Positions 8,901 through 42,251 of a stretch of 64,000 nt of DNA are shown in pieces. The DNA is from an uncultured Gammaproteobacteria bacterium. GTDB taxonomy: Bacteria; Patescibacteriota; Patescibacteriia; SBBC01; CAIJZX01. A program made the position numbers and the translations under genes. Within the stretch, counting starts at the first letter, position 1, and every line of letters starts with the position of its first letter. The DNA lies in assembly GCA_964518425.1 (NCBI GenBank), contig CAZFGG010000001.1, positions 54,597-118,596 on the forward strand, given 5' to 3'. The notes beneath the pieces are model-generated. The model saw only the letters and a list, made by a program, of their open reading frames with translations. It made no database searches and was not told the DNA's origin.

Positions 8901-11609
8901 ACGTTCACGGCCAGCGTTCGTGCCAAAGCCGCGGCTGCTTGTACCACCCGCCTCATTGTCAGCACGAATCTCGGCGGGAGCAACGTTTCATCCGACCAAA
9001 TGAGCGTCACGACCGATTGGCAGACATTTACGACAACCCTGGTTCTGCCGACGCAGCTCCAAGCTGGTACGGCCGACGACGGAAAAGTCGGCGTGGCCAT
9101 CCAAGTCGGAGGGTGCGCGAATCTCATTATCGATAACGCCCAACTCGAGCACGATGGACCGACGACCTATAAAGATTACGGCGCCATCAACGCTACCTAT
9201 CTCGGGGCCAAGCGCCAACAGTGCACCAAGGAAGATGTCGGCTGCCAACTCTACACCCCAACCGATGGCTCGCCCGCGGTGCCTGGACAAATTCTCAATA
9301 GCAATCGCTGCGACGCGCAAAACGTCGGTTGTAACCTCTACCACCTTGAACCGATCACGACGGTCCCCAAACGCAGCGGCGGAGATGTCACGGTCGTGGC
9401 GACCAAGGGCGAACAGTGCAGCGCCTCTGACGTCGGCTGCGAAGAATATACCAACCTTGATGAGGTGGCGAAAGGCGGCGAAGGGAAAGCCTACTTCAAA
9501 TCGGTGAAACAGTGCGTCAAGCCGAATGGCGACCCGGTCGTTGCCCCGCAGCAAACCTACTACACCTGGGTTGGAGATCCGAAAGCGGGATTTGTGCTCC
9601 GCGCCTATGACTTATTGAAATCAAATCTCGACGGAAACCCCTGCACGAATCTGACCGTTGGAACGGTTGGCACAACCCCGGCTTGTGATGATGCGAACCG
9701 ACCCGACCCGCAAAGCACCCTGTGCAATGCCTCGACCTTCGCTACGAACCCTGACTGTGGTCAGTACTATGATTCCAGTTTGAATGTCTACTACCGTTTG
9801 CGCCAAGCAACGGTCTCGGTCACGCCGGATTGTCATCCTTTCCGAAATACCATTGACCAGGATGATCAGAACGCTAAGAACAATATTTACTACCTGGCGC
9901 CGGAAGAAAATGTCAGCTGTTCAGCCGCCGCCGCTGGCTGCCGGGGCTACACCGGTAATGCGGCCCAGACGAGTCGACAAATTTTCCGCGATGATTTTGA
10001 AACCGCGACAACCAGTAACTGGGTTGGTGGCAGTATTTCCTCGGCCTCAATCAGTTTGGGCGGACATTCCATGCACATCCCTGGTAATAGCGCCGCCTAC
10101 CTGACGACAGCGGCGGTCAAAGGTAAACTTTTCAAGGGGAAGACATACCAGGTGACGCTCTTAGCTGCCGCGGCCAGCTCAACGGCGCCGCAACTCGGTG
10201 TCTGGCTTGGTCCGGTGACGAACGGAAAATTTGATGGTATTACGCCTTTCCAGCGCGATGCTAACGGGAATCCATTGACGGTCACGCCAACCTACAGTTC
10301 CTCGATTACGCCGCCTGGTCCCGAGTGGCACACCTATTCGTTTGGCCTTCTCACACTGACCCGCGATCCGACGAGCCTGACGCTTGGTCTGACTGTTGAT
10401 GGCGGTGACGCCTTCGTTGATAATGTTACCTTAACGGAAATCAACGACAGTCTCTACTTGGTGAGTTCGACAGTCCCGGCCTGTCCGGCCAGCGAGGTTG
10501 GTTGTGCCGCCTACACTGATCGCGATGGAAATACGGTCAACCTTAAATCATTCAGCCGGATCTGCTCGGAACAGGCCGTGAACTGTGAAGCCTTGATTGA
10601 CACGCACAACAGTACGTCGCCTGACGCCGAAACGATTAAAAATATTAGTACGCCGGCTGACAACGTCGTCCAAGTCGTCAATGATCCGGCCGTCAGTTGC
10701 CAAGCCGAAGCTAAGGGCTGTCAGGCCGTGGGCTTGCCAACCTACAATACCGACCACCTCCTGACGGGGTACCAGACGACGTATTTGAAAAATAACCCTG
10801 ACCTCTACTCGACAAACCTCTGTACGGATGGACGGAATGGAACACCGAACGAGCTCTTCTGCAGCGCCTACTCAACCTCGAGCGGGACAGTGGCTTTCTT
10901 CAAAGATCCAACCAATCAGACGTGTGAATTCCGAACGGATAATTCCACAGCTGGGGGACAATGGTATGTCACGGGAACAACGACCTTATGTCCGACGGTC
11001 ACGCCGCCTGAAGTCGGACGACCAGTCGGCGCGTCATGCACGCCGACCTGCGACGGGGGCCAGCGACTAGGCCGGGCCTGCGTCTCGAACGCTGACTGCC
11101 CGAGTGCAAAATGTACTGGCGACGCTGCGACGACCGGGCGGATTAATGACGGCTCCGGCAAAGCAATTATTGGTCAGTGCGGCTCGGATAGCAATTGCTT
11201 GGGCGGTAATAAGTGTCTGTACCAGGTTGGGACCTGTCCAGCCGAACAGAATTCCTGTACCGAATACCGCGACCCCACTGATCCAAAGAGTTGCCGCTCG
11301 GAATGTCCACTTGTTCAACAAGGGGGCAGCGCGGTCTTCGTAGACAGCACCTGTACCCCGACGGTCTGTCAGGGTGGCGACCAGGCGGGCAAAGGTTGCC
11401 AAACGAGCACCGATTGCAGCGGCGGAGGACAATGCGTTGGATTTGGCAGCACCCCGGCACTCGGCGCCCCTGGTTGCCGGCCATATTACTACCTGAGCTC
11501 GAGCGTCGAAGACACGGCCAAAGAGTGTAATGGCCAGGTCAACTTAGCTACCGGTTGCCGTCCATTCAATGATACCTTAAACCCAGTCCTTAACTTCCGC
11601 GGCCAATGA
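5973..11609 (+). CDS. Giant (1878 aa) secreted cysteine-rich surface protein, hypothetical
   Basis: Signal peptide MSRRSRFIFILLTSFILLGQFGFSVRPAQA; uninterrupted 5.6-kb ORF; >=10 copies of a C-x5-(G/S)-C-x-x-Y motif in C-terminal half; 3 nt after upstream stop. Confidence 0.7.
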   Translation: MSRRSRFIFILLTSFILLGQFGFSVRPAQAILGVGDVTFNTTVEDIPRKIAATITKVTDTLKGKLKTVTDITFKNSLQLFTSRLLREAATQIATAGPGQKPLFLTNPKTFFRNVANSAAGDYIDNFTRGITGQTAASVGSTRTRFLISRFLRSSLPNPLNSCQDDCRTNYSVRSDFSPGVSKRPSAENDHETKINDVLGVYQDINGSTVQLASTDPNQLMTCREVNTKVPFTGSVQPYIISPGYPGTQTIPQIQAQQCKNHQEEAINNEKSDAYAETLQCYKDCQNGLAGVATGAINAATATDVFTAVNNIEPSKVPGAIANALSNDKSDVGQLLGAFAGLTTAVQDRITGEQTNLQPNVLPRTSTVSEQVASPSTVTTATFYGLFQVSSNGQFVYTGSGLADILKGIASFINSPIGQLFTQSFRNKCGFNPDACRGPSNPQSAIGQLLFGTGLPSGIAGAQIQLSSLGQPQLISGNPGQNDIPVTDQLSTNGLIDSGFRQAIEEELTVQEALNKKLLDSQKVFGFDRNGVEPRDGYPYRALQYLRKFRVIPVGWELAAKYKQQFDNRNLTLGKLVKAFNICGQDQLLGTCTNDPTRTCVTNPDCTFTLPSGTQSTGQCTNIKFSGTHEVCTNNPEQACQLDADCGGGTCGASPYCGLVDPNWVLKAPQSFCRRQGAGEEILTKEFVCDENNVNGTTNASIPPGTIAQQAGDSGSPNCVFDGTNNQHPDIGHWVISRNTDTCADVQSCIAENDDGSCIAYGYCVQERQTFKFSGTQCDAQNVSCTAYTDSQGQPRSYLANTLDFRNCTADNAGCQWYCHKVCSDDPSRSCSVDVDCATGSGTNTATCTGGFDASTNSWLCADPTLANTPATNPTINFTNKVAKCDQTQAGCQQYLRTTNGTNLLPNSGFEVITNGVQVGSGADAIYADWQNSSGLHAVPVTPDDPLITANNSVAVNLSGSGVISQTIDTGAHIYEQTFTASVRAKAAAACTTRLIVSTNLGGSNVSSDQMSVTTDWQTFTTTLVLPTQLQAGTADDGKVGVAIQVGGCANLIIDNAQLEHDGPTTYKDYGAINATYLGAKRQQCTKEDVGCQLYTPTDGSPAVPGQILNSNRCDAQNVGCNLYHLEPITTVPKRSGGDVTVVATKGEQCSASDVGCEEYTNLDEVAKGGEGKAYFKSVKQCVKPNGDPVVAPQQTYYTWVGDPKAGFVLRAYDLLKSNLDGNPCTNLTVGTVGTTPACDDANRPDPQSTLCNASTFATNPDCGQYYDSSLNVYYRLRQATVSVTPDCHPFRNTIDQDDQNAKNNIYYLAPEENVSCSAAAAGCRGYTGNAAQTSRQIFRDDFETATTSNWVGGSISSASISLGGHSMHIPGNSAAYLTTAAVKGKLFKGKTYQVTLLAAAASSTAPQLGVWLGPVTNGKFDGITPFQRDANGNPLTVTPTYSSSITPPGPEWHTYSFGLLTLTRDPTSLTLGLTVDGGDAFVDNVTLTEINDSLYLVSSTVPACPASEVGCAAYTDRDGNTVNLKSFSRICSEQAVNCEALIDTHNSTSPDAETIKNISTPADNVVQVVNDPAVSCQAEAKGCQAVGLPTYNTDHLLTGYQTTYLKNNPDLYSTNLCTDGRNGTPNELFCSAYSTSSGTVAFFKDPTNQTCEFRTDNSTAGGQWYVTGTTTLCPTVTPPEVGRPVGASCTPTCDGGQRLGRACVSNADCPSAKCTGDAATTGRINDGSGKAIIGQCGSDSNCLGGNKCLYQVGTCPAEQNSCTEYRDPTDPKSCRSECPLVQQGGSAVFVDSTCTPTVCQGGDQAGKGCQTSTDCSGGGQCVGFGSTPALGAPGCRPYYYLSSSVEDTAKECNGQVNLATGCRPFNDTLNPVLNFRGQ

Positions 11610-14600
11610 CACGTTTTATCCAATCGCTCTCGTCACGAATCGCCCTCAGCGGAGTATCCGTGGTGATCATGGTTTTCCTGGCCCTCCATCTTTCACCGGT
11701 TGCTTGGGGTGCGCCGATATGTCTGGCTGGAGACTGCTCGGGAGGGGAAGTGTGTGTTTCAACCCAAGGCTGCGTGGCCATTAGCATGTCAGTCAACACC
11801 ATCGTGACGGCCACAACAGTTGGATACAACGTTGATGTGAATGGCGTTGATCCATGGACGCTCTACGCCTGCCTCGGGCCCCGTACGGTCTGCGACACCA
11901 AACCGCACTCGGATACAAATTTTTGGAAGCAGGTTGGTGCCGTCGACCTCAAGACGAAGTTCGCGGTTTATAACGTTCGTCCGGGTAAGACCTATACTGC
12001 TTCACTCTTTGTTCAAACCGATCCAACCACAACGCTTGAACAGGAAGCCACGGCCACGACCTGGCCAGCTTTTCCCGCCCCTCCGACAATCAGCAACATT
12101 GGCCAGAATACAGCCACGATTAATTGGGCGCTGCCATTCTCAGCCGATTCAAAAGTGCGTTATGGTATTTTCCCCCAAGACTGGCAAAGTGAATATTCTT
12201 TGCCAGCCGGACAAACATTCTCAGCCGTCGCCGGGCTCAGTTCGGGAAAATCCTGGGCCGTTGGCCAAAGTGGCGCCATTGTGAATCGAACTATTTCGGG
12301 CTGGCAAGTACAAAATAGTCAGACGACCGCTGATCTCATCACGATTGATGGCTACGACGATAATTCTTTATGGGTCGCGGGAAAAGCCGGAGTAGTGCTC
12401 CGTACAACGAATGGGGGCGGATCCTGGGATTCACAAAGCGCACTCTATTCAAACCCAGCCGATGATATTTATGGCATCAGTACCTCAACCGACTCGACGG
12501 CCTGGATTGCTGGTACTCAAGGGGTCCACTTTTTTGACGGCAGCCTGTGCCAAACACGAACACCGCCAGTCTCCGGTTCTTTCTATTCAGTCTTAACCCT
12601 CAATAATCATGAAGTGTGGGTTGGAGGCAGCACCGGCAAGGTCTATCATACTATCAATGGTGGAACGATCTGGACGACGCAAAACACCGGAGGAGCTGGT
12701 ACCATTAATACTTTAGCTAGTCTTGATGGTAAAACGATTTGGGCTGGAGGCGCGAACGGTGGACTCTGGCGCTCAACTGACAGCGGGCAAACGTGGTTGA
12801 CGATGACGACGGGTACGGCGCAGCAAATAAATAGCCTATCCATGCTCTCACCATCGGAAGTCTGGTTCGGAGCCGCAAATGGAATAGGTAGTTCAACGAA
12901 TGCCAATGGTGCAAACCCTACATTCACGTTTGACGCGAGCGTCCTCGGCGCAGTCCCGTCTGTACAGAGCATTGCCTTCGCGAATGGATCAAGTCTGATT
13001 GCCGTTGGCCAGAATAAGCTGGGGGCCTATCGCTGTCACTCGAGTCCGACCTCGTGTGCGAATGTTCAAAGCGATTCAAATATTATTGTTCCGCCCAGTA
13101 GCCATAGCGTTCAACTCAACGGTCTATCGCAAGGCCAGCCATACTTTTTCTCGGTCGAATCCGTTGGTTCGGGAGTCGGCTGGGGAGCTTTTGGAACATT
13201 CATGACCGGCCAACCGGATACTATTCCTCCCGTGACCGCCTTTATCAATCCACCCTCTCCCGGCCCGACGTATACGAATACCACGCCATTCGCGGTAACT
13301 GGGACAGCCAGCGATACCCCGCCTGGTTCCGTCCAGAGTGTCACGTTAACAAAAAACGGCACACCGCAAAGCGTCAGCGGTACGACCTCGTGGTCATCAA
13401 ATGTGGCTCTATCACCTGGCCTGAACGCCTTGGTGGCGACGGCGACTGATGGCGGCAGCAATACCGCCACCGCCAATAGCAGTCTCTTCTACGACGCGAC
13501 AAAGCCAGTAGTTTCTATTACTGCACCGACCAACGGCTCAACAGTCAATACCAATCCTTTTAACGTTACCGGAACCTCAACCGATAATGCGGCCAACGAC
13601 TCGGGCCTAGCCTCCATTGTGATGACGGTGAATGGTGGAAGCCCACAAAGTATTGCGGTCGCGGCCGGTACGGGATCATTCAACTGGAATGCTTCAGCCA
13701 GCCTCAACGTTGGATCGAACACCGTCGCCGTCACGGTCGCTGATCGAGCGGGGAACACGCAAACGACTCAAGTGACCTTCACCTATGTTGCCCCGAGTTT
13801 TAATCTGACTGTGACCCCGGCCAGCCAAACAGCATTTTCTGGAGATATTGTGACCTACACCGCAACGCTGACTTCGCAAAATGGCTTTGCCGGCTCGGTC
13901 AATTTGTCGGCCGTTGTTGCCCCCGGCGGCCCGACCGTCTCATTCAGTCCAAGTGTTGTTACCTTGACTGCCGGTTCAACGGCTACGAGCACCCTGACGG
14001 TTGCGACGGCCGGCGCTAACGGGAATACGTATACGATCACCACGACCGCTACCGGCGGTAGTGTTACAAAAACAGCCAGCGTCCAACTCATTCTCAAGGC
14101 TGCTCCTGACTTCAGCATCTCCGCCACCCCCTCGCCGCTGAGTATCATCGCCGGACAATCAGGTAGCTACACGGTCACCGTGTCGGCCAATAATACGTTT
14201 GCTGGACCAATCACCTTTTCAGTTACCGGTATCCCATCGAATGTGACCGGAACATTTAGCCCCCCCTCAGTTACCTTAGCGAACTCTCAAATTACGACGG
14301 TCAGTCTCAATATCGTGACCCAAGCCACTGCGGCCAATGGTGATTACCCATTAACCATTACCGGTAACGGAACGAATGCCGCCAACGGCCAGATTATCAC
14401 GCCCGCGCCAACCACATCAGTCATTCTCCATATCAGTCCAGCTCCGGATATTGGCCTCAATTTTACGCCAGCCAGCCAAACGGCTAATGCCGGAGGATTA
14501 GCGGTCGTGTACTCGGGGACCGTCACAAGTATGAACGGTTTTGGAGGAACGGGGACGCAGGTCAACCTGACGGTGACGAGTGATTATGCAGGCTCTGGTT

Positions 14601-15757
14601 TAACCATGACGCTCCAACCAAACCAAGTCATTCTCGCTTCAGGTGATGTCAAAACGACAGCCTTGAATGTCATCGTGGCCAATAGTGTTCCGGGTGGTAC
14701 GTATCATCTGACAGTCACGGCCAGTGGCGGCAGTGTCACGAAGCAAGCCACTGTCAACCTGGTCGTCAATGAAGATACCTCTCCACCGATCATCACGAAT
14801 ATCGTGCCCACGCCGAACTTCGATCGTGTCCGCATTACCTGGACGACGGATGAACCGGCGAACTCGGCCATAAAAATCTATACGGATGTCGCCCGAGCTA
14901 ATCAATATGGACAGAACGAGACGCTCAGCACATTCTGCACCTCCGCTTGCCATGATTTGGTCTACGCGACCTTGGCGCCATTGACGACCTACTACTTCAC
15001 CGTCACCTCAACTGATACCGATCCTACGCCCGGTGGACCGCGGACGACGATCGCTACGACCGATGCCAGCGGAAACCCTTTGCAGTTCACGACACTCGAC
15101 ACTCCAGACACGACCCCTCCGGATGTTACCCTCGTGACGCCGGCTGATCAGACGACGGTCACTGGGAATACTGATGTCACTGGGCACGGCCATGATGATA
15201 AGAAAGTTGATCATATCAAGCTGGCCATTGATAACCTGACCCCTGGCACAACGGAGCCGCCGATCGCCACAACTATTGGATGTAGCGGACAGGACTGCGA
15301 TTATTCGTATACCTGGAACACTGGCGCCTTCGGTGCCGCCGGAAATGGTGTCCACACGGTCACGGTCACCGCTGTTGATGGTGCTGGCAATCCATCCTCG
15401 CCAGTCACGCACACGGTCACCGTCGACAATGACTTCACCGACCCACAGCTGACCAGCGGACCAGACGCCATTAATCTTGTCTGCACGACGACTTGCAAGA
15501 TCACGATCGTCTGGACGACCGATGACCAGTCGACGAGCGAAGTCGGCTACGATACTCCTGTTCCGCAGTACTGCGATCCAGTCTCGGGCGCCTGTACCTA
15601 CAGCCAGCATCAAGCCTACGACGATGCCGCCCCGAGTGATTCGTCACCAGCGTATACCAGCCATAGTGTTACCTTAACGAACCTCAACAAGAACGTTCTC
15701 TACCATTATCGCGTCTTCAGCTGTAATAAAACTGGCCGCTGCCTGCAAAGTGGCTAA
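11606..15757 (+). CDS. Giant (1383 aa) secreted protein with BNR/Asp-box repeats and multiple Ig/FN3-like beta-sandwich domains
   Basis: ATGA overlap with upstream gene; signal peptide; BNR-like SxDxGxTW repeats (TTNGGGSWDSQ, TINGGTIWTTQ, STDSGQTWLTM); repeated about 95-aa T/S-rich Ig-like modules (e.g. FNLTVTPASQTAFSGDIVTYTATLTSQNGFAGSVNLSAVV). Confidence 0.7.
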   Translation: MTRFIQSLSSRIALSGVSVVIMVFLALHLSPVAWGAPICLAGDCSGGEVCVSTQGCVAISMSVNTIVTATTVGYNVDVNGVDPWTLYACLGPRTVCDTKPHSDTNFWKQVGAVDLKTKFAVYNVRPGKTYTASLFVQTDPTTTLEQEATATTWPAFPAPPTISNIGQNTATINWALPFSADSKVRYGIFPQDWQSEYSLPAGQTFSAVAGLSSGKSWAVGQSGAIVNRTISGWQVQNSQTTADLITIDGYDDNSLWVAGKAGVVLRTTNGGGSWDSQSALYSNPADDIYGISTSTDSTAWIAGTQGVHFFDGSLCQTRTPPVSGSFYSVLTLNNHEVWVGGSTGKVYHTINGGTIWTTQNTGGAGTINTLASLDGKTIWAGGANGGLWRSTDSGQTWLTMTTGTAQQINSLSMLSPSEVWFGAANGIGSSTNANGANPTFTFDASVLGAVPSVQSIAFANGSSLIAVGQNKLGAYRCHSSPTSCANVQSDSNIIVPPSSHSVQLNGLSQGQPYFFSVESVGSGVGWGAFGTFMTGQPDTIPPVTAFINPPSPGPTYTNTTPFAVTGTASDTPPGSVQSVTLTKNGTPQSVSGTTSWSSNVALSPGLNALVATATDGGSNTATANSSLFYDATKPVVSITAPTNGSTVNTNPFNVTGTSTDNAANDSGLASIVMTVNGGSPQSIAVAAGTGSFNWNASASLNVGSNTVAVTVADRAGNTQTTQVTFTYVAPSFNLTVTPASQTAFSGDIVTYTATLTSQNGFAGSVNLSAVVAPGGPTVSFSPSVVTLTAGSTATSTLTVATAGANGNTYTITTTATGGSVTKTASVQLILKAAPDFSISATPSPLSIIAGQSGSYTVTVSANNTFAGPITFSVTGIPSNVTGTFSPPSVTLANSQITTVSLNIVTQATAANGDYPLTITGNGTNAANGQIITPAPTTSVILHISPAPDIGLNFTPASQTANAGGLAVVYSGTVTSMNGFGGTGTQVNLTVTSDYAGSGLTMTLQPNQVILASGDVKTTALNVIVANSVPGGTYHLTVTASGGSVTKQATVNLVVNEDTSPPIITNIVPTPNFDRVRITWTTDEPANSAIKIYTDVARANQYGQNETLSTFCTSACHDLVYATLAPLTTYYFTVTSTDTDPTPGGPRTTIATTDASGNPLQFTTLDTPDTTPPDVTLVTPADQTTVTGNTDVTGHGHDDKKVDHIKLAIDNLTPGTTEPPIATTIGCSGQDCDYSYTWNTGAFGAAGNGVHTVTVTAVDGAGNPSSPVTHTVTVDNDFTDPQLTSGPDAINLVCTTTCKITIVWTTDDQSTSEVGYDTPVPQYCDPVSGACTYSQHQAYDDAAPSDSSPAYTSHSVTLTNLNKNVLYHYRVFSCNKTGRCLQSG

Positions 15758-24442: not shown

Positions 24443-24732
24443 TTCTACGATTGCCAGTAGTAACTCTTCAACCTCGGATGCTGATGCAGCGCGCCGGCTA
24501 CGTTGAGTTTCACGATCCGCGGAGTGGGGAAGTGTCCTATGTCCGTCGCCTCGGCACCCACTTCTACCCCCGGTTCCATGTGTACCTTGAATCGAAAACT
24601 GATCACCTCCGTTTGAACCTTCATTTGGATCAAAAACAACCGTCATACCCCGGCTTTACGAAGCATAGCGGTGAATACGATGGAATAACGGTTGAGGCCG
24701 AAGCTGAAAGGTTGAATAGGGCCTTAACTTAA
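24439..24732 (+). CDS. Small hypothetical protein (97 aa)
   Basis: 4-nt overlap with upstream stop; His/Arg-rich; no recognisable motif. Confidence 0.35.
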   Translation: MILRLPVVTLQPRMLMQRAGYVEFHDPRSGEVSYVRRLGTHFYPRFHVYLESKTDHLRLNLHLDQKQPSYPGFTKHSGEYDGITVEAEAERLNRALT

Positions 24733-24741
24733 ATCAAGGCT

Positions 24742-24775
24742 TGACAAATACCGTAGACTATGGTAGTCTCCGTGG
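24742..24775 (+). promoter_or_regulatory. Candidate promoter/operator: TTGACA followed by palindrome TAGACTA-TGG-TAGTCT
   Basis: TTGACA at 24742-24747; 7-bp inverted repeat tagacta/tagtct(c) with 3-bp spacer 17 nt downstream; sits in an unusual 186-bp gap inside an otherwise gap-free operon; strong SD AAGAAAGAGGTGA 6 nt before ATG 24919. Confidence 0.35.
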
Positions 24776-24918
24776 TTATTGTTGATACCTAAAGAGCTCT
24801 AGATGCTTTGGGGCCCTTTGAAAACTAAATAGGTTTCGAATCAAAGAAATCCGCGAGCCGCACAGACCGTGCGTCTCCTTGCGTTTGACCGCTCACCCCA
24901 AGAAAGAGGTGAACCAAA

Positions 24919-26010
24919 ATGGCTACCAAGGAGAAGAAAGGCTTACCCGAAGGATGGGAAGTCCCAATGGGAGCTGCCGCACAGGCCATCCTGAAGAGAA
25001 TCGTCAACGCCTCACTCGACTGGGTCGAGCGGGTCGATCGTGATCTCTTCTTGTCGGCCGCCTGGATCTACACTAACGAGTCAGCCGATAACATCAAGCT
25101 CTGGACTCAGGGTTCGTTTCTGGCGGGAGCGACGCTCCTCGAAAACATCGCCGACCATTTGCCAGTCTGGGAATGGATGCGGGAGGTGATCGAACGCGCC
25201 GGTCCCGACTTGCCGAACCTGGTCAGTCAGTACTTCAAGCTTCGTCAAGCACGCGGAACGCTCAACTTCCCGCCGGACTTCAAACCTCTGACGAGCGACG
25301 AAGCCAAGAAGAAATTGGCCCAGTTCGGAACAAAGGTCCAGGAAGCGTTCAGGGCAAGGTTGGAAAAATCCATACCGATCTTTGCGCGTCTTCGACAGCG
25401 CTGGGATGACCTGGTCGCCCGACTCAAGGGCGACGGCGAATTCCGGCACCATAGCTATAAAGCTTTCCGTCAAGCCTTTCTCGACGCCAATGATGAAGAA
25501 CGAGAACTGATCGTGGCCGCCTTCTGGGGCCCGCCCAACGCGGAAGAAGATCAACGGCTTCTTTCCGAACAGGAACTCTGGAACTTCAAGAAGGCTCACG
25601 AGTACTTCGGCGACAAGGAGAAGTTGGAGAAAATGGCCCGAATGAAACGGCGCCACCTTCGCTTCTTCCTGGCTATGGAAGATCAGGACGACTGGTTTAA
25701 TTTCCTGTCGCCTGATCTGAAAAAGAAATTCAAGGCCATCGTCACCGATGGCTATCAAACAACTGGTCACTTAGCCGACGACCTGGGCGGATGGAACGAC
25801 CGAATGGAACGGCGTTTGGACATCAGAAAGACCAATCAGCAGATTCAGCAAGGTGTTACCACGGGAATACTGCTGATGATCGGAGCAATCGCCTGTTTCA
25901 TGGGTGGCCGCCCCCTACCGGGCACCATCCTCTCGGTCGTCGTAGTCGCGATGGCCATATACTTCCTCTTGGCTCTGCGCAAGCAGCATAAGGAGACAGC
26001 CAATGGCTGA
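24919..26010 (+). CDS. Hypothetical protein, cytoplasmic domain with C-terminal double-TM anchor; first gene of a compositionally distinct 2-gene cassette
   Basis: 363 aa; strong SD; C-terminal hydrophobic stretch GVTTGILLMIGAIACFMGG...ILSVVVVAMAIYFLLAL; codon usage visibly shifted to AAG/GAG and C/G-ending codons relative to flanking genes. Confidence 0.55.
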   Translation: MATKEKKGLPEGWEVPMGAAAQAILKRIVNASLDWVERVDRDLFLSAAWIYTNESADNIKLWTQGSFLAGATLLENIADHLPVWEWMREVIERAGPDLPNLVSQYFKLRQARGTLNFPPDFKPLTSDEAKKKLAQFGTKVQEAFRARLEKSIPIFARLRQRWDDLVARLKGDGEFRHHSYKAFRQAFLDANDEERELIVAAFWGPPNAEEDQRLLSEQELWNFKKAHEYFGDKEKLEKMARMKRRHLRFFLAMEDQDDWFNFLSPDLKKKFKAIVTDGYQTTGHLADDLGGWNDRMERRLDIRKTNQQIQQGVTTGILLMIGAIACFMGGRPLPGTILSVVVVAMAIYFLLALRKQHKETANG

Positions 26011-27160
26011 CGAGAAGAAGCCGGAGGCCGCTGAGACGAAGGGTTCTTCAACCCATCGCGCTTGGTGGCAAGAAGTGCTGCTGAACATTCCGAAGGAACT
26101 CTATGGGTTCCTTAGCCTCGGACCGTTTGTACTCCTGATCTGGGGGATCTACCGTGACGAAAACGGTCGACGCCTGACAAAGGAGATGATCCGCAGCGGC
26201 AAGATCCTCTGGAAGTGGACGAACGAGGAATTCAACCGTTTGATCGGCGTGATCAACGTCGCGCTGCTGTTCATCGTCGCGATCAGCGGACTGCTTCTCT
26301 TCGGCATCTCGACCCCCAGTCAGTATTCATTCTGGGGAAGCGTCTGGCCCAACACCGTCCTTAACCGGACCTACCTCGGCTTGCCACTGATGCTGCTGGT
26401 GGTGTTCTGGATCGTCCAGATGATCTTCACCTTTTCCCGGCCGCTCATCGCGATCGGCTTGGCGGAGAAGTGGCTGACCAAGGACCGCAAGGACGAAGTC
26501 TTCGCCATTCGGTTCGTCCGGATGCAATTCAAGTTCGCGGGATGGTACGCCTTTGGGTTTACCGTTCTGAACGCGGTCACCTGGTACCACGAACCTGGCG
26601 CTCTGGCCATCGCGGTCCCGGGCTTACTCATCTACCCGCTGTTCTGCAATGCCTGGCGGCGTGGAGACTCGGAACATGTCCGGCGGACGGTCCTCATCGG
26701 GAACGCCTTCCTGGAAATGTGCTGCGTCATCTTCGCTTCTGTGCCGGGGTCATGGCATGGCCTGACGTCATTGGCCATCGGCGACAAAGTCATCGGTCCT
26801 TACGTCGCCCTGATCCTATTCTTCTCACTCGGCCTGCTGGCGGTTTCCCTCGGTCGAATCAAGACTGGGGAAGACAAAGCCCGCATCGCGAAAGCACAGT
26901 ATGACGAGCTCAAGGATGTTGACTTGGGTCGTGTAGCGGCCATCAAGTCATTGCTGAATGATGATTCCAAGTCAAACCGGACTGCCGCGTCACCAATGGG
27001 GTACTCGTACTCACAACCAGACACAGCCTGGGGGCGTCCGGTCCAGCCGCTCTCGCGCACCTCGGAGATTTTCCAGGCGATAATCGGCATCTTGCTTCTG
27101 TCCGCCGTCTTCATGGGTGCTGTCTACATGTTCAACCTGTACATGACCCGCAAGCCGTAA
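26003..27160 (+). CDS. Hypothetical polytopic membrane protein (about 8 TM), second gene of cassette
   Basis: 8-nt overlap (ATGGCTGA) with upstream gene; multiple hydrophobic helices; same AAG/GAG-rich codon usage; followed by a clear intrinsic terminator. Confidence 0.55.
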   Translation: MADEKKPEAAETKGSSTHRAWWQEVLLNIPKELYGFLSLGPFVLLIWGIYRDENGRRLTKEMIRSGKILWKWTNEEFNRLIGVINVALLFIVAISGLLLFGISTPSQYSFWGSVWPNTVLNRTYLGLPLMLLVVFWIVQMIFTFSRPLIAIGLAEKWLTKDRKDEVFAIRFVRMQFKFAGWYAFGFTVLNAVTWYHEPGALAIAVPGLLIYPLFCNAWRRGDSEHVRRTVLIGNAFLEMCCVIFASVPGSWHGLTSLAIGDKVIGPYVALILFFSLGLLAVSLGRIKTGEDKARIAKAQYDELKDVDLGRVAAIKSLLNDDSKSNRTAASPMGYSYSQPDTAWGRPVQPLSRTSEIFQAIIGILLLSAVFMGAVYMFNLYMTRKP

Positions 27161-27177
27161 CGCTCTTTCATTCTTTT

Positions 27178-27226
27178 GCCCAGTACCAATTCGCATTCGC
27201 GAAAAGGTACTGGGCATTTTCTTTTC
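27178..27226 (+). terminator. Rho-independent terminator
   Basis: GCCCAGTACC(27178-27187)...GGTACTGGGC(27206-27215) perfect 10-bp stem followed by ATTTTCTTTT. Confidence 0.7.
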
Positions 27227-27263
27227 CCCAGAAAACACAAAGAAAAACTGTTAATCAACCCTT

Positions 27264-27292
27264 TTGCTTGTTTGGCCGATTTGTGCTATAAT
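27264..27292 (+). promoter_or_regulatory. Sigma70-like promoter TTGCTT-17-TGcTATAAT (extended -10)
   Basis: TTGCTT 27264-27269, 17-nt spacer, TGC immediately 5' of TATAAT 27287-27292; 24 nt upstream of ATG 27316. Confidence 0.55.
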
Positions 27293-27315
27293 AAAGCCAC
27301 AAAAACAGACTGGAC

Positions 27316-28800
27316 ATGGAAGATATTTGGCAACAATTCCACCGTTTGCCGAAGACGATACGCGACTCCGTCGCTACGCCGGAAGCCTTGGCGACAGTGG
27401 ATCAACTTGAGCGCCAGCACCCAGGCCTTGATTTGGCTGGTTTTATCATGCGCGCCATGGTCAAGGAATTTCCTATCAATGAACTCAGTCAGAAGATGAG
27501 TCAGGAGGCTAAGCTCGATCAGCCAACCGCGGACGCGGTTACCCAAGAGTTAACGGCTAAGGTTTTTGGTCAACTCAGGGAATATCTTGGACTTCCGGCT
27601 AAGGTATCAGCACCAACAGTCATTCCGCCCACGCCACCACCGGCTCCGGTTCAACCTAAGACTGTTCCACCAATCCCGACAGCAGTACTAAGCCCGCTGG
27701 ATCAACCGAAAAAGGTCGTGCCAGCACCCCCAATCCAGCCGCTCGTTCCACTCGTCACGACCATGGCGGCTCCCCGGCCGGCCACGATGACGAATGTCGC
27801 CCCGACCCAAAATTACTCTGAAGATGATGACCAGGAGATTGCCCAGCAGGCCCGCCGCGTCAAAGATATCGCCGCCAGTTCAGAGACCATCGACCTTGAT
27901 ACGATCGTCGAACAAGTCATGCGCCAGCACAATTTGGCTTTCCGTGATGAGCTGCTGCAAAAGCGCGTCGTGTCCCTGTTGAAAGCTCGACTAAAAGGTA
28001 TCCGCGATTCTGATGACACGAAAGCGATGCTCATGCGGACACCGAAAGTCGGTGGCCTCGGCCTCGATCCAGATGTATCAGCCAACGTTGTGACGAGTCT
28101 TGACCAGGCGGCTGGACGTTTGAAAACGCGGGGCGCAGTTACCCCGCCACTACCAATCGCCCCGCCGCCTCCGCCGGTGGTTCCCCGCATTGAGCCAGAG
28201 CGTCCTGCTCCGAAACCGCCCCTGACGCGAGGCCTACCGCCAGAGAACCTACCGCTGGCGGCCAGCACGCCGCTCCCGAACGTGACCGATCAGCCGCGGC
28301 CGGCCCCGCTCCTGAAACGGCCGGCTGATATTCCCGCGCCGCCCCCAATAGCTGCAGGTCCCGCTCCGTTTGCCCCCAGCCCCCGACCGACCGCTCCGGC
28401 GAACCGACCGCTCATCACCCGGGAACGGTTGCCAGAACGACAAAACATTTCCGATATTACCCGCCCGAATATTCCGGTCATGGGGCCGGCTGGTGAAATG
28501 AGTAGTTTAACCCTGATGGAATTCCGTCGTCTTGGCCAGGGGGCATCCGACTCAGCCAATCGTTTACTCGAAAAATTCAAGCACTACCAAAAAGAATCCT
28601 TTCCGCTCTGGGCCGAAGCGATCGCTGGCTGGCGGCAAAGCGAAGTCCATCGGATCTATCTTGACATGGGCCGACAAAGCCTTGACCAGGGCACGCCGAT
28701 TACGCAAGTCATTCAACAACGGGCCAAGTCCGGCTTGCCATATTTATCCGAACACGAATTCGCTATTGTCTCGGATCTCAACCGTCAGCTCCAACTCTAA
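27316..28800 (+). CDS. Proline-rich hypothetical protein (494 aa)
   Basis: Long PPxP/PxP-rich central region (TPPPAPVQPKTVPPIPT..., PPLPIAPPPPPVVPRIEPERPAPKPP), structured N- and C-terminal domains; first gene after promoter; antisense Gly/Arg-rich ORFs are mirror artefacts. Confidence 0.55.
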   Translation: MEDIWQQFHRLPKTIRDSVATPEALATVDQLERQHPGLDLAGFIMRAMVKEFPINELSQKMSQEAKLDQPTADAVTQELTAKVFGQLREYLGLPAKVSAPTVIPPTPPPAPVQPKTVPPIPTAVLSPLDQPKKVVPAPPIQPLVPLVTTMAAPRPATMTNVAPTQNYSEDDDQEIAQQARRVKDIAASSETIDLDTIVEQVMRQHNLAFRDELLQKRVVSLLKARLKGIRDSDDTKAMLMRTPKVGGLGLDPDVSANVVTSLDQAAGRLKTRGAVTPPLPIAPPPPPVVPRIEPERPAPKPPLTRGLPPENLPLAASTPLPNVTDQPRPAPLLKRPADIPAPPPIAAGPAPFAPSPRPTAPANRPLITRERLPERQNISDITRPNIPVMGPAGEMSSLTLMEFRRLGQGASDSANRLLEKFKHYQKESFPLWAEAIAGWRQSEVHRIYLDMGRQSLDQGTPITQVIQQRAKSGLPYLSEHEFAIVSDLNRQLQL

Positions 28801-28803
28801 GCT

Positions 28804-29283
28804 ATGCCTAACCAATTCGTCGTACCACAATTTATCGACGTCGAGGATAAAATTCTCGGACCAATTTCCGTTCGCCAGTTTATTATCGTCTTAACCGGTA
28901 CGGGCTTGGTGGTTGGCGCTTACCAGATCCTCTACAAGCTGGCGAATCAGTTCATTCTCTTTATCGTCAGCGCCCTGGGTATCCTGGCCGGTGTCCTGAT
29001 GTTCGCCTTTATCAAGGTCAACGGGCGACCGTTTCACCTCTTCGTCCTCAACCTTCTCCAGTCAGTCAAAAACCCCCATCTTCGTATTTGGAATAATCAA
29101 ATGGCCGAAATATTGCAATATCGGAAAGAGCCGCCCCCGCCACCTCCGCTGCCCTTAAAACAACCACTGACGAAAACAAATCTGGCAAAATTGGCGTTGC
29201 TGGTTGATACTGGCGGGGCCTATCACGAAGACGACGATCTGCTCTACATCGGCCAACCTCTCGCCCCCTCACCTCCACGTTAA
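28804..29283 (+). CDS. Small two-TM membrane protein, PrgI/VirB3-like (T4SS)
   Basis: 159 aa; N-terminal PQFIDVEDKILGPISVRQFIIVLTGTGLVVGAYQI + second TM LFIVSALGILAGVLMFAFIKVNGRPFHLF, the PrgI-family pattern; located directly upstream of VirB4-like ATPase as in Gram-positive conjugation loci. Confidence 0.45.
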   Translation: MPNQFVVPQFIDVEDKILGPISVRQFIIVLTGTGLVVGAYQILYKLANQFILFIVSALGILAGVLMFAFIKVNGRPFHLFVLNLLQSVKNPHLRIWNNQMAEILQYRKEPPPPPPLPLKQPLTKTNLAKLALLVDTGGAYHEDDDLLYIGQPLAPSPPR

Positions 29284-29286
29284 ATC

Positions 29287-30028
29287 TATGGCCACGACCT
29301 CTGCCAAAAATAAGAATCTGGTTCGGAAAAAAACGGGTATCTCTACCCAGCAGTACTTAGATATTTTAGAAATTCGTGACGACGCCGTCATTTTGAAGAA
29401 CGGAACGATCTTAGCGGTGATTCTCGTGGCCTCGATCAATTTCTCGCTCAAATCGGACGAAGAACAAGACGCGGTTATCGAAGCCTACGTTTCGTTCCTC
29501 AACACCATCGATTTCCCCCTGGAAATCGTCATTCAATCGCGTCGCTTGAACATCGATGAGTATTTGGAAATGCTCAAGAAAGTCGAGAAGCAGCAGACGA
29601 ACGAACTGCTCCAGATTCAAACCCGGGAATACCGTCAATATGTGGCCGAACTTGTCCAAATCGCTGACATCATGACCAAGCGGTTCTATGTCGTCGTTCC
29701 CTTTTCATCGAAAGTTGATCGCCCCGGGAAATTCTTTAGCCGATTAGCCGATATTCTCAATCCTACATCGACTATCCATCTCAAGCAGAAACAGTTTGAA
29801 CAATACCGTCTAGAATTGTACAAGCGAGTGGATAACGTTTCGAACGCCTTAGCTTCAGCCGGATTGAAATCGGCGGTCTTGGACACCCAAAGCCTGATCG
29901 AACTGTACTATAATTCCTATAATCCCGAGACGGCCCGCCAACAACAAGTCGCCGATGTCGATAAACTGAGCCTGGAAGACGTTTCCAGTATTAAAGAAGA
30001 TGTCCCGGGTAAAGAAAAACGAACCTAA
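29287..30028 (+). CDS. Hypothetical soluble protein between VirB3-like and VirB4-like genes; weak resemblance to VirB4 N-terminal-domain pattern
   Basis: 247 aa from ATG 29287 (MATTSAKNKNLVRKK...); segment DILEIRDDAVILKNGTILAVILVASINFSLKSDEEQDAVIEAYVSFLNTIDFPLEIVIQSRR resembles CagE/TrbE/VirB4 N-domain consensus; no Walker motifs. Confidence 0.35.
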
Positions 30029-30039
30029 TCTCGAACGGA

Positions 30040-31962
30040 ATGCCTGATATTAACCTCTCCAGTCCAAAAATTTTCCGCGACCAGCCTTCTCCGGCCACGC
30101 GAGAATTACCGCGGGCCCCATCCGACGAACGTGAACTGATCGAAGCCGAACGGATTTACCGCCAAGGAGTTGTTACGGTTCGCGACTTAATCGCGCCGGC
30201 CGCTCTGAAGATTGACGCTCGGTACCTTCAGTTGAATGGGCAATTCGTCCGGACGCTGTTTGTTATTAGCTATCCTCGCTACATTTCCGTTGGGTGGTTC
30301 GGGCCGATCATCAATTACAACGCCCCGCTCGACATTTCTATGTTCTTTTACCCCATCCCCTCGGATGTTATTTTGAAGCAATTGCGGAACAAGGTTGGGG
30401 CTTTAGAAGCCCAGCTCTTGGCTGATAGCGAAAAAGGTGCGCCGCGCGACCCTGTTCGGGAAACAGCGCTCCGAGACATCGAGAAACTTCGGGACGACTT
30501 AACACAAGGCACTGAACGTTTTTTCCAGTTCGCCTTGTATGTCACGCTCTACGCGCCGTCGGCAAAAGCCCTTGATGATTTGACAAGCAAAGCCGAAGCT
30601 ATCTTCGGTTCACGTTTAGTCTTTACGAAACGAGCCTTTTTCCAGGCTGAACAAGGATTCACGTCAACCCTGCCGCTTGGCCTTGACCAGCTTCAGGTGA
30701 CGTTCAACATGAATTCGTCACCGATTGCTTCGAGCTTCCCGTTCGTCTCGGCCGATCTCTCGAGTGACAGCGGTATCCTCTACGGCATCAACCGGCACAA
30801 CAATTCGCTCATCCTGTTTGACCGGTTCGGCCTACAAAACCCTAACTACACGGTCTTTGCGACGGCTGGATCTGGTAAATCGTATGCCGTGAAATTAGAG
30901 GTTTTACGGTCAATGATGTTCGGAACGGACATTATTATCGTTGATCCGGAGCACGAGTATAAATACCTGTCTGATGCTGTTGGCGGAACCTACATTAATA
31001 TCTCCCTCAATTCCCAGACAAAAATTAATCCGTTCGATCTGCCCCGCCAGGCAAGCGGCGATGAAACCACGGCCGACATTATTCGTTCAGCCGTCATCAC
31101 CCTCAAATCTATGTTCCGGTTGATGCTGGGCGATGTCACTCATGAGGAAGATTCCATTATTGACCGCGCTCTGCTTGAAACCTACGCCAAGAAAGACATT
31201 ACGCCTGACGCCGATTTAGCCAACGTCGTTCCGCCGGTCATGACTGATTTCGAAGAAGTTTTGTCCGGCATGACCGGCGCCGAAGGGCTCGTTGAACGGT
31301 TGAAAAAATATACCCAAGGCACCTTTGCCGGACTTTTCAATTCACCGACCAACATTGAATTGAATAATCAACTGGTCGTTTTCTCTGTCCGTGATCTCGA
31401 AGACGAACTTCGACCGATCGGTATTTCGATTATTATCTCGTACGTCTGGAATATTGCTCGCTCGAAACTGAAGCGGCGTATGCTCGTGATTGATGAAGCC
31501 TGGTGGTTGATGCAGCACGAAGACTCGGCTAAATTTATCTACGGCCTGGTTAAGCGCTCACGGAAATACTACCTGGGTGTGACGACGATTACCCAGGACG
31601 TCAACGACTTCCTCCTCTCGCCATATGGCCAAGCGATTATCAATAACTCAGCCTTAGCGCTCTTGATGAAGCAGTCGCCGGCAGCCATTGATATCGTGAC
31701 GAAAACGTTCCTCCTGACCCAACAGGAACGTTACCTTCTGCTCGAGGCCGGTGTTGGCGAGGGCATTTTCTTCGCTGGCACGAAACATGCAGCGATCAAG
31801 GTGGTCGCATCATACGCGGAAGACCAAATCGTTACGACCAATCCGCAACAGTTACTGGAAATAGAAAAAGCCAAAAAAGAGTTTGAGCAGTCCGTGGCGG
31901 CCGGTACAGCCACGAACGCCGGTACGGCCATTCGCTCGCCCGAGGAATTGAACAGCCTGTAA
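30040..31962 (+). CDS. virB4: VirB4/TraC/PrgJ-like T4SS ATPase
   Basis: 640 aa; N-terminal Gram-positive VirB4 pattern (YLQLNGQFVRTLFVISYPRYISVGWFGPIINYNAPLDISMFFYPI); Walker A FATAGSGKSYAV (about 30853-30888); VirB4-typical Walker B hhhhDEAW (MLVIDEAWWLM, about 31480-31512). Confidence 0.8.
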   Translation: MPDINLSSPKIFRDQPSPATRELPRAPSDERELIEAERIYRQGVVTVRDLIAPAALKIDARYLQLNGQFVRTLFVISYPRYISVGWFGPIINYNAPLDISMFFYPIPSDVILKQLRNKVGALEAQLLADSEKGAPRDPVRETALRDIEKLRDDLTQGTERFFQFALYVTLYAPSAKALDDLTSKAEAIFGSRLVFTKRAFFQAEQGFTSTLPLGLDQLQVTFNMNSSPIASSFPFVSADLSSDSGILYGINRHNNSLILFDRFGLQNPNYTVFATAGSGKSYAVKLEVLRSMMFGTDIIIVDPEHEYKYLSDAVGGTYINISLNSQTKINPFDLPRQASGDETTADIIRSAVITLKSMFRLMLGDVTHEEDSIIDRALLETYAKKDITPDADLANVVPPVMTDFEEVLSGMTGAEGLVERLKKYTQGTFAGLFNSPTNIELNNQLVVFSVRDLEDELRPIGISIIISYVWNIARSKLKRRMLVIDEAWWLMQHEDSAKFIYGLVKRSRKYYLGVTTITQDVNDFLLSPYGQAIINNSALALLMKQSPAAIDIVTKTFLLTQQERYLLLEAGVGEGIFFAGTKHAAIKVVASYAEDQIVTTNPQQLLEIEKAKKEFEQSVAAGTATNAGTAIRSPEELNSL

Positions 31963-40895: not shown

Positions 40896-40985
40896 GGAGG
40901 CGTGGCTGAGTGGTCGAAAGCGACGGTCTTGAAAACCGTTAGGGGTGCAAGCTCCTCGTAGGTTCGAATCCTACCGCCTCCGCCA
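40896..40985 (+). tRNA. tRNA-Ser (anticodon TGA), long variable arm, CCA encoded
   Basis: Acceptor GGAGGCG/CGCCTCC, anticodon stem ACGGT/ACCGT with loop CTTGAAA, long variable arm TAGGGGTGCAAGCTCCTC, T-arm GTAGG-TTCGAAT-CCTAC, discriminator G. Confidence 0.85.
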
Positions 40986-41011
40986 GTAAATTGGTAAGAT
41001 ACATCTGATCT

Positions 41012-41105
41012 GGAGAGGTGGCCGAGTGGCTGAAGGCGGCAGGTTGCTAACCTGTTATACGGGGTTAAACTCGTATCGAGAGTTCGAATCTCTCCCTCTC
41101 CGCCA
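41012..41105 (+). tRNA. tRNA-Ser (anticodon GCT), long variable arm, CCA encoded
   Basis: Acceptor GGAGAGG/CCTCTCC, anticodon stem GCAGG/CCTGT loop TTGCTAA, long variable arm, T-arm GAGAG-TTCGAAT-CTCTC, discriminator G. Confidence 0.85.
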
Positions 41106-41312: not shown

Positions 41313-42251
41313 ATGTTTCGCTGGGCAAAGATTCTGCTATTGGTCGTCGGGTCACTGTACGCGACATCGATCACTGCCGCCCCGAAGCTGTCGTCCGTAG
41401 AATGGACGACGTTGTCCGCCACCTTCGATGGTCCGCGGGGGATCGCGGTCACCTCGAGTGGTGACTTGTTCGTTACCGATGCTCATCGCGTTCAGCACTT
41501 CGATCGTGATGGTCAGCTGGTCAACCAGTGGGGCTTCGCGCTGATCTCCCCGATCGGCATCACCGTCGATCGCGGCCGGGTCTACATCGTCGATCCGCCG
41601 AATGCCACGGTCAACGTCTTCACCGAGTCCGGCCAGCTGGTCAACCAGTGGGGCTCGCAAGGATCCGGTCCAGGTCAGTTCGACGACCCATACTTCGTCG
41701 CTGTCGATGATGACGGAAATGTCTACGTCGGTGACAACGGTAATCAGCGGATCCAGAAGTTCACTTCGGACGGGGTCTACCTGACCACCTGGGGTCTGGA
41801 TGGAACTCCGTTCGGAATCGTGGTCAGTAAGAACGTGGTTTCGGTTATGATCGCGACGGGTCATGTTCAGCAATTCACCACCGCGGGTGCCTTACTCGGT
41901 GTCTGGGCTCCGGGAAACGATCAGCTGATTGGACCCTTTGGCCTGGCTGCCAGCTCGCGTGGTGATCTGTACGTGGCCAACCGATTCGGTTACAACCTCA
42001 AGCAATTCACTGGCAACGGTGATCTCCTGGGTAGCTGGGGCAGTTTCGGAACTGGCCTTGGCCAGTTCAACCAGCCGTTTGGTGTCGCGGTCAGCCCGAA
42101 CCAGACGGTCTACGTGACCGACTGGGGCAACAACCGTGTCGAAGTCCTCAGCCACCGGTCTGCACGGCTGGGCAACAACCGTGGCGGGCCTGATCCCTCG
42201 ACCGCCATCCTGACCCCGACCTGGGGCCAGTTGCGGACCCGCTATCGCTAG
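41313..42251 (+). CDS. Secreted NHL-repeat beta-propeller protein
   Basis: Signal peptide MFRWAKILLLVVGSLYATSITA; six NHL-like repeats (e.g. GPRGIAVTSSGDLFVTDAHRVQHFDRDGQLVNQWG; QFDDPYFVAVDDDGNVYVGDNGNQRIQKF; QFNQPFGVAVSPNQTVYVTDWGNNRVEVL). Confidence 0.75.
   Translation: MFRWAKILLLVVGSLYATSITAAPKLSSVEWTTLSATFDGPRGIAVTSSGDLFVTDAHRVQHFDRDGQLVNQWGFALISPIGITVDRGRVYIVDPPNATVNVFTESGQLVNQWGSQGSGPGQFDDPYFVAVDDDGNVYVGDNGNQRIQKFTSDGVYLTTWGLDGTPFGIVVSKNVVSVMIATGHVQQFTTAGALLGVWAPGNDQLIGPFGLAASSRGDLYVANRFGYNLKQFTGNGDLLGSWGSFGTGLGQFNQPFGVAVSPNQTVYVTDWGNNRVEVLSHRSARLGNNRGGPDPSTAILTPTWGQLRTRYR

Follow-up and report, generated by a model that had tools for sequence, protein, structure and literature searches.

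A 64-kb segment of a chromosome from the Patescibacteria (candidate phyla radiation), referred to here as the window, carries a locus that resembles a type IV secretion system (T4SS). One of the intergenic spacers of this locus holds a cassette of two genes, which we designate A and B. In this report, we find it well supported that the cassette is an autonomous two-gene membrane unit, which this lineage gained from a family linked to comEC and which entered the T4SS locus at a boundary between operons. It is a complete transcription unit (window positions 24741-27225; 2,485 bp) made up of a promoter, a leader of ~150 nt, gene A, gene B and a strong terminator. A first-pass annotation had described a self-contained two-gene module equipped with its own signals, and each of the features that it listed is present in the DNA. 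They are given below with the elements added here (SD, Shine-Dalgarno sequence; UTR, untranslated region).

24741-24769, plus strand: predicted cassette promoter, with -35 TTGACA (24741-24746), a 17-nt spacer and -10 TAGTCT (24764-24769)
24754-24769, no strand: palindrome TAGACTA-TGG-TAGTCT, overlapping the promoter spacer and the -10
24770-24918, plus strand: 5' leader of ~150 nt, with boxes GGTTA (24774-24778) and GGGGCCC-TTTGAAAACTAAATA (24810-24831) and the SD core GAGGTG (24906-24911)
24900-24912, plus strand: SD of gene A, AAGAAAGAGGTGA, with an anti-SD duplex of -7.1 kcal/mol
24919-26010, plus strand: gene A, 363 aa, with a predicted all-alpha N-terminal domain and a C-terminal two-helix membrane hairpin
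25990-25995, plus strand: SD of gene B, AAGGAG, inside the 3' end of gene A, with an anti-SD duplex of -8.2 kcal/mol
26003-27160, plus strand: gene B, 385 aa, a polytopic membrane protein with 7-8 hydrophobic segments by hydropathy
27161-27169, plus strand: start of the 3' UTR, CGCTCTTTC, identical in related locus L086
27177-27225, plus strand: intrinsic terminator, with an 11-bp outer stem, an inner 5-bp stem and the T-tract TTTTCTTTT (repeat-finder pair I3)

The promoter lies in the 186-bp gap that precedes gene A (24733-24918). Its extended -10 element, TGgTAGTCT (24761-69, with the TG at 24761-24762), agrees with TATAAT at only three of six positions and was for this reason not listed by a consensus promoter scanner. 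The layout (-35 TTGACA, 17 nt, TGn plus TAnnnT) is nevertheless that of a sigma-70-type promoter with an extended -10, a prediction made from the sequence only. The palindrome to which the first-pass annotation drew attention exists, but it is specific to the window and statistically unremarkable alone: its left half is not kept in the homologous promoters of related loci, and by our estimate ~0.3 such 6-bp inverted repeats are expected by chance per 186 bp. It may be an operator or may have arisen by coincidence; we rejected it as a regulatory signature, as it is unconserved and expected by chance. At the other end of the unit, a stable GC-rich hairpin directly followed by a T-tract marks the intrinsic terminator. 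Positions 27177-27187 pair with 27206-27216 in its outer stem, which measures 11 bp and not the 10 bp first assigned to this perfect hairpin, and the tail reads UUUUCUUUU. The fold has an energy of -29.7 kcal/mol (z = -7.0), and none of 200 shuffles was as stable. Genes A and B overlap by 8 nt, in ATGGCTGA, with the start codon of B overlapping the stop codon of A.

Protein A has no signal peptide, and its N-terminal domain is presumed to be cytoplasmic. An AlphaFold2 model computed from an alignment of 12 sequences had a predicted local distance difference test score (pLDDT) of 67, with residues 20-160 at 80-92; the model from the single sequence (pLDDT 41) was unusable. Combined with hydropathy, the former model predicts an all-alpha protein in which a long helix leads into the two-helix membrane hairpin. 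The original description of A as a cytoplasmic protein with a membrane-embedded C-terminus is thus upheld, except that a hairpin takes the place of a single anchor; likewise, B is polytopic as described, although the eight transmembrane (TM) helices first assigned to it are better given as 7-8 hydrophobic segments. In the family of A, residues E75, D79 and E92 are invariant, and D97, Y105, F106 and P118 are nearly so. The alignment of B and its relatives contains almost no invariant residues, and B is therefore unlikely to be an enzyme. No meaningful match to A or B was found in Pfam, NCBIfam, PADLOC or the sequences of the PDB, and matches to PHROGs were insignificant. A Foldseek search of the PDB and BFVD with the model of A likewise returned nothing significant. 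Profile, family and structure searches thus agree with the initial impression that neither protein has a recognizable motif.

The relatives of A are few. A full HMMER search of 1.84 billion representative proteins detected 11 of them, which with the window copy make a family of 12 representatives. The closest relative aligns over its full length at 44% identity; for the others, identity is 24-38%, mostly across 110-300 residues of the N-terminal part. All derive from Logan (raw-read) or ENA assemblies, and none from NCBI genomes. Word-indexed protein searches with A, with B and with the A-family alignment retrieved only self matches and one of these relatives (P0007). Scans of JGI metagenomes with A-family patterns and of IMG/VR with A and B found nothing, an exact look-up of A gave no recorded contig, and BFVD contains no relative. 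In eight of the 12 family members (P0004, P0006-P0011 and P0013), the hairpin is replaced by one TM helix with a Big_7 immunoglobulin (Ig)-like domain after it; A, P0003 and P0012 are without this domain. In the same eight, a cytoplasmic domain of ~300 aa precedes the TM helix; in six (P0004, P0006-P0009 and P0013), a G-C pair follows closely after it (around residues 330-400), lipobox-like but internal.

The gene pair is conserved as such. Downstream of each of the 11 A relatives is a gene for a B-like polytopic protein, overlapping or at most 60 nt away (loci L090 and L091 have the same A-like protein as L089). The B-like genes form one alignable family with B; the product of one of them (b82) matches B (E = 5e-26) and has in common with it the motif P(L/F)FCNAW-x-G-x-SEH-x-RRT. 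A C-terminal T-x-N-G in the A-type proteins is conserved together with the start-stop overlap. Further, the Ig-less form of A (window, L081 and L082) goes with the FCNAW..SEH subtype of B wherever the latter can be read, namely in the window and L082; the B-like gene of L081 is cut after 67 residues. The start-stop overlap and the co-occurrence of A and B subtypes suggest that the two proteins form a complex.

In all 10 family loci with readable upstream sequence, the gene immediately 5' of the A-like gene is comEC; of the whole family, only the window copy does not adjoin it. In the rarely sampled clade for which this is the home context, comEC is split into overlapping Competence and Lactamase_B open reading frames (ORFs; L084, L088, L089/L090, L092/L093 and L094), the promoter of the pair lies 150-340 bp after the comEC stop codon, and the longer contigs have the order glmS-comEC-A-B...rplT-rpmI-infC. 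An ORF for an IS200-like Y1 transposase was seen 5' of comEC in L094. Neither A nor B is homologous to a known Com protein, and the pair is served by a promoter of its own; the tie of the pair to comEC is one of adjacency only, and is missing in the window. Among four loci, the ComEC C-terminal domains are 69-74% identical and the A-like proteins 27-37%; the A-B pair thus evolves much faster than the flanking ComEC.

The ends of the unit are homologous at the level of DNA. The layout TTGAC(A/T)-17-TGnTAnnnT recurs 5' of the A-like gene in L081-L089, L092 and L094. The related loci (in the alignment, plus L092) have the leader boxes GGTYA ... GGAGGGCnG-TTTGA(C/A)AAnTGAATA in common, while their proteins are 20-45% identical. 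The window leader, to which that of L092 is closest, has a 22-nt insert between the two boxes, and its second box reads GGGGCCC. Close variants of the 3'-UTR start (GCTCTTT..) directly follow the stop codon of the B-like gene in L084, L089 and L094, and long two-part terminators of the same type follow it in L083, L084, L086-L089 and L092. Conservation in the DNA thus extends from the promoter and leader boxes to the first bases of the 3' UTR and the type of terminator, and for this reason the whole unit appears to have moved.

The leader warrants separate comment. Its conserved boxes, kept more strongly than the proteins, may constitute an undescribed 5' regulatory or stabilizing element. The whole-leader fold has z = -2.1. 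A small, variable hairpin between the boxes displays a few compensatory changes (CAG/CTG, CTG/CAG, AGTAC/GTGCT), yet it is thermodynamically weak and is offered as a lead only. Rfam covariance models gave no relevant match in window positions 24600-27400, L081-L087 or L091. When metagenomes were scanned for the leader motif GGAGGGCWGWTTGAMAA, 120 loci came back. All are chance matches: the promoter context is missing from each, as is any ORF resembling A or B. Stabilizers with an SD-like sequence in the 5' leader, such as the STAB-SD of Bacillus thuringiensis cryIIIA, are one point of comparison. Like these, the leaders of the family have a GGAGGG near the 5' end, far from the start codon, that is kept while the proteins diverge. 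The likeness is limited by the weakness of the leader hairpin and by the motif of the window, which is GGGGCCC after a 22-nt insert; for the cassette, it is also a likeness of sequence alone. A similar motif, TTGACA ... TGCTAGTAT ... GGTTA ... GCCCTTTGA, precedes an ORF for a 554-aa histidine-phosphatase-like protein in two more distant relatives (minus strand of L008, ~4842, and of L009, ~5296), which hints at a promoter or leader type shared within the group.

In the window, the cassette separates two transcription units of the plus strand. The unit 5' of it encodes giant surface proteins and proteins of 241 and 97 aa; the unit 3' of it encodes a 494-aa protein, PrgI, a TrsD-like protein, VirB4 and pilins. 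Besides the gap of the cassette itself, the gene run at 5193-36601 has only two gaps of more than 40 nt, one at 5014-5192 and one of 155 bp after the cassette. The landmarks on its downstream side are as follows.

27264-27292, plus strand: promoter that serves the downstream T4SS unit and lies outside the cassette, TTGCTT, 17 nt, TGcTATAAT, ahead of the 494-aa gene
28804-29283: PrgI (VirB3-like), T4SS-like cluster
29204-30028: TrsD-like ORF, T4SS-like cluster
30040-31962: VirB4, T4SS-like cluster
33072 and 35306: T4SS_pilin (VirB2-like) genes, T4SS-like cluster

A genome scan with VirB4 provided 80 related T4SS loci, of which the closest seven (L001-L007, labelled Candidatus Kerfeldbacteria or Patescibacteria) have a VirB4 83-86% identical to that of the window. 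By tblastn of the window proteins, these seven have the same order: the 241-aa, 97-aa and 494-aa genes, PrgI, TrsD-like and VirB4. Their spacer between the 97-aa and 494-aa genes measures 77-303 bp and is free of the cassette, and tblastn of A and B against all 80 loci gave no match. The cassette-free form of the locus that the first-pass annotation's reading implied is thus found in seven close relatives and throughout the 80 T4SS loci. With the unit taken out of the window, 8 nt on its left and ~90 nt on its right are left over, which together match the spacer length in L002 and L005-L007 (77-102 bp). TTGTGCTATAATAA with its flanks is conserved in all seven relatives, 5' of the 494-aa gene. 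Because it is kept in these cassette-free genomes, the downstream promoter is ancestral, and the insertion therefore lies in a spacer that already separated two transcription units. The cassette had been placed inside an operon, which does not hold: the site is an operon boundary. The fresh promoter described for the downstream genes is there as claimed; it is ancestral, kept in the seven relatives, and was ruled out as a part of the cassette. At the same site, L003 (6822-7106) and L004 (6689-6992) have spacers of 284-303 bp full of GC-rich palindromes. The spacer that holds the cassette thus appears to be a variable, permissive spot.

The direction of the change was assessed with a neighbor-joining (NJ) phylogeny of one protein, VirB4, in 200 bootstrap replicates. 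The seven relatives excluded the window in only 4 of the 200 replicates, and the window was sister to L007 in 151. Since the window nests within a cassette-free clade, one gain is favored over several losses. There is no integrase or transposase in or beside the unit, nor are there flanking repeats or a target-site duplication; these absences make transformation followed by illegitimate recombination the probable route of entry. Horizontal acquisition, proposed in the first-pass annotation, is thus supported by a site that is empty in relatives and by homologues that reside in a different (comEC) context.

It was the codon usage of the cassette that had first suggested a foreign origin. G+C content at third codon positions (GC3) is 0.68 in A and 0.76 in B against a window median of ~0.59. 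With resampling matched for amino-acid content, A deviates by z = +4.0 and B by z = +6.7, the highest in the window. ATT makes up 0.06 (A) and 0.10 (B) of the isoleucine codons against ~0.47, and AAG 0.67 and 0.84 of the lysine codons against 0.38; the shift amounts to a general avoidance of A- and T-ending codons. The overall GC of the unit (0.553) compares with 0.534 for the window, and its non-coding parts, at 0.47 and 0.41, are not rich in GC. The two SDs are likewise exceptional, as had been pointed out for A: the window is SD-poor, with a median anti-SD duplex of -2.4 kcal/mol, 3 of 40 genes at -8 kcal/mol or stronger and many genes without a detectable SD, against -7.1 (A) and -8.2 kcal/mol (B). 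The comEC-linked relatives, however, have the same signature. Their A- and B-like genes have a GC3 of 0.70-0.90 against 0.48-0.68 in the adjacent comEC (in L089, the difference is +0.36 to +0.39), and strong SDs where most of their neighbors have none; the window copy has the weakest signature in the family. Because it accompanies the pair in every host, the signature is a family trait and does not serve as the fingerprint of a donor. The deviation in codon usage is thus real, as a per-gene GC3 analysis confirms, but it is no evidence of a recent foreign origin. Ordinary expression-linked codon bias was ruled out, given that the ribosomal genes of L089 have a different pattern. As candidate causes, we consider a recombination hot spot with gene conversion, selection on mRNA stability and membership in a special, SD-led expression class.

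The GC3 background in the window is overdispersed, and a gene for an NHL-repeat protein (41313-42251) also deviates (z = +4.8; GC3 0.72). No SD in the window is stronger than that of this gene (GAGGAGG, -12.1 kcal/mol). Its promoter reads TTGACA (41206-11), 17 nt, TGcTAGAGT (to 41234; -10 at 41229-34), and the gene lies just downstream of two tRNA-Ser genes (40896-41105). Promoter, SD and GC3 here repeat the combination seen in the cassette. On the contig of L088, two short ORFs (10508-10768, 86 aa, and 14391-14636, 81 aa) have a GC3 of 0.84 and 0.78 and a strong SD, like the A-B pair on the same contig.

Taken together, we assign a probability of about 0.6 to the reading that the cassette is an autonomous unit from another lineage of Patescibacteria, inserted into a spacer of the T4SS locus, whose products may be accessories of the cell envelope. 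In the home clade, the unit always comprises a consensus -35 with an extended -10, the conserved leader, A, an overlapping or abutting B and a long two-part terminator, and stands immediately after a split comEC. It would have been copied from such a lineage into the spacer between the two transcription units of the T4SS locus, probably by transformation and then illegitimate recombination. A would serve as a scaffold, its cytoplasmic all-alpha domain anchored by the helical hairpin, and B as its partner with 7-8 TM segments in one cytoplasmic-membrane complex; in most relatives of A, the Big_7 Ig-like domain would be extracellular. With low confidence, we suggest that this complex of two subunits may be linked to DNA-uptake or cell-surface machinery and is not an enzyme. 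Natural competence via ComEC has been demonstrated in Saccharibacteria, which belong to the Patescibacteria (PMC10633639).

Several points weigh against this account. The closest homologue of A is only 44% identical; no donor was found, and the transfer is not recent. The phylogeny that orients the change rests on one protein and NJ, and the codon and SD signature, being common to all family members, cannot date or orient the transfer. The cassette may instead have been relocated within the genome from comEC, or may have a second copy elsewhere in the genome of the window. The linkage to comEC may represent inherited synteny rather than functional coupling, since the pair is equipped with a separate promoter and the whole block glmS-comEC-A-B...rplT is conserved. 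The A-B complex and any function assigned to it are predictions.

Other explanations of the locus were considered. In one, the pair is a comEC-associated component of DNA uptake, for instance a gate for the ComEC channel or a membrane protein that partners it, and in the window has been rewired beside another translocation machine. This idea is favored by the site of the pair, which is right after comEC in 10 of 10 family loci across a divergence of ComEC down to 44% identity, by the membrane nature of both products and by the report of novel transmembrane families beside comEC, virB6 and pil genes in Patescibacteria (PMC10849945). However, with its own promoter and leader, the pair is not cotranscribed with comEC, and the synteny from glmS to rplT means that the adjacency may be inherited. 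The family is also very rare (12 representatives), in contrast to a ComEC that is near-universal in the phylum, and the window copy lies away from comEC and resembles no known Com protein. We regard this role as possible but rather unlikely. More doubtful still is the notion of an immunity, defense or exclusion pair directed against T4SS effectors, phage or incoming DNA. Rapid evolution of the A-like proteins (27-37% identity against 69-74% for the ComEC C-terminal domains), atypical composition, the extracellular Ig domain predicted in most relatives and the position beside machines for DNA or protein translocation in both contexts would all suit such a role. Yet PADLOC had no match at E <= 1, PHROGs had none of significance, no viral relatives were found in IMG/VR or BFVD, and a toxin or nuclease partner is absent. 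Further, the pair occupies one fixed site of housekeeping synteny in 10 of 10 home-clade loci and not a variable island. Immunity or defense had been offered as an example of function in the first-pass annotation; the empty PADLOC result and the fixed syntenic home site leave it with no positive evidence.

The two explanations that dispense with an insertion fare worse. If the cassette were ancestral to the T4SS locus and had been lost in relatives, A and B would be T4SS accessories that this lineage has retained. The cassette does lie directly upstream of the T4SS core unit, B is polytopic like VirB6, and the membrane components of the T4SS in Patescibacteria, such as VirB6 and VirB8, are described as unidentified or highly diverged (PMC12102498), which leaves room for such accessories. 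But A and B occur in none of the 80 related T4SS loci and have no T4SS match in Pfam, the other members of the family are linked to comEC and not to a T4SS, and the window is nested, the cassette-free relatives being monophyletic in only 4 of 200 bootstraps. Ancestry of this kind is very improbable. We consider it least likely of all that the junction is an artefact, with foreign DNA joined to the locus through chimeric assembly or faulty binning. The contig is metagenome-assembled, and third-position composition in the cassette is unlike that of its neighbors. The insert, however, is exactly one intact unit, the leftover spacer has a length that fits the relatives, the flanks continue with intact host genes in one 64-kb window, and the GC of the unit (0.553) is close to that of the window (0.534).

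As a gained unit, the cassette has counterparts in better-known systems. Phage morons are reportedly autonomous promoter-gene-terminator units that lie between conserved genes (Juhala et al. 2000; Hendrix et al.), and chromosomal genomic islets are likewise units of this form. The cassette resembles both in its own promoter and intrinsic terminator, its intergenic position, its atypical composition and its lack of mobility genes. It differs from morons in that its host is a chromosomal T4SS locus, not a phage, and in that it comprises two translationally coupled genes; its surroundings are chromosomal housekeeping and T4SS genes, and no relatives were found in IMG/VR or BFVD. It differs from morons and islets alike in that its atypical composition is a property of the family in all hosts and does not trace a donor. 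Among uncharacterized families, the FESNov catalogue (PMC10849945, Extended Data Fig. 4) lists four novel transmembrane families of Patescibacteria that adjoin comEA/comEC, virB6 and pil genes. As with A and B, these are uncharacterized membrane proteins of Patescibacteria for which adjacency to genes for DNA uptake or secretion is the only functional hint. The A family, with its 12 representatives, is far rarer.

The T4SS-like cluster beside the cassette is of a type described in class ABY1 and Kerfeldbacteria-like genomes as the MPF-FATA-like T4SS of Patescibacteria (PMC12102498). The likeness lies in the genes for PrgI, a TrsD-like ORF, VirB4 and T4SS_pilin. A and B do not extend it: neither has a Pfam or NCBIfam match to T4SS components (VirB6, VirB8, PrgH, PrgL etc.), and both are missing from the 80 related clusters. 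From this comparison, A and B are best regarded as neighbors of the T4SS and not as demonstrated components. The 494-aa protein (27316-28800), encoded by the first gene of the T4SS core unit, sits where PrgH/VirB6 sits in pCF10-type clusters and is kept in 71 of the 80 related loci, with no family match; as it has no hydrophobic segments, it was rejected as an equivalent of VirB6 or PrgH. Elsewhere in the window are the housekeeping genes for LeuRS, Sua5, KsgA, RecG, ClpB and PilM, as well as the run of genes for giant surface proteins; the GC of the segment is 0.53. The LeuRS ORF (156-2429) includes a NUDIX domain (residues 193-312) between the editing and catalytic parts. The IleRS of L088 (14643 to the contig end) carries a His_Phos_1 domain and is thus, like the window LeuRS, an aminoacyl-tRNA synthetase with an inserted enzyme domain.

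The insertion described here would be an ordinary lateral acquisition, but an unusually clean one, in which a unit from promoter to terminator has entered an inter-operon spacer without a mobility gene. This fits the idea that naturally competent Patescibacteria gain genes through transformation. It also holds a caution for the scanning of genomes: a high GC3 and strong SDs in an SD-poor genome looked foreign, yet they are a trait of this family everywhere. Leader and UTR signals that are conserved above the level of the proteins suggest an undescribed regulatory element.

The membrane parts of the ComEC and T4SS machines are poorly defined in Patescibacteria, and the cassette reveals a very rare pair of uncharacterized membrane families, for which adjacency to comEC at home and to the T4SS core here are the only functional hints. 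These facts raise a speculative possibility, to which we give little credence at present: A and B might be an unrecognized, fast-evolving membrane module of two subunits through which DNA-translocating machines are coupled to a domain for recognition at the surface (in most members, Big_7 Ig). The module would be hard-wired to ComEC at home and captured by the T4SS locus here, and its location at a recombination hot spot, with GC-biased gene conversion, would account for the extreme GC3 in every host. If this were true, the A/B module would be a candidate for a gate that recognizes self and non-self, or the host, and so controls the uptake or transfer of DNA in these episymbiotic bacteria.

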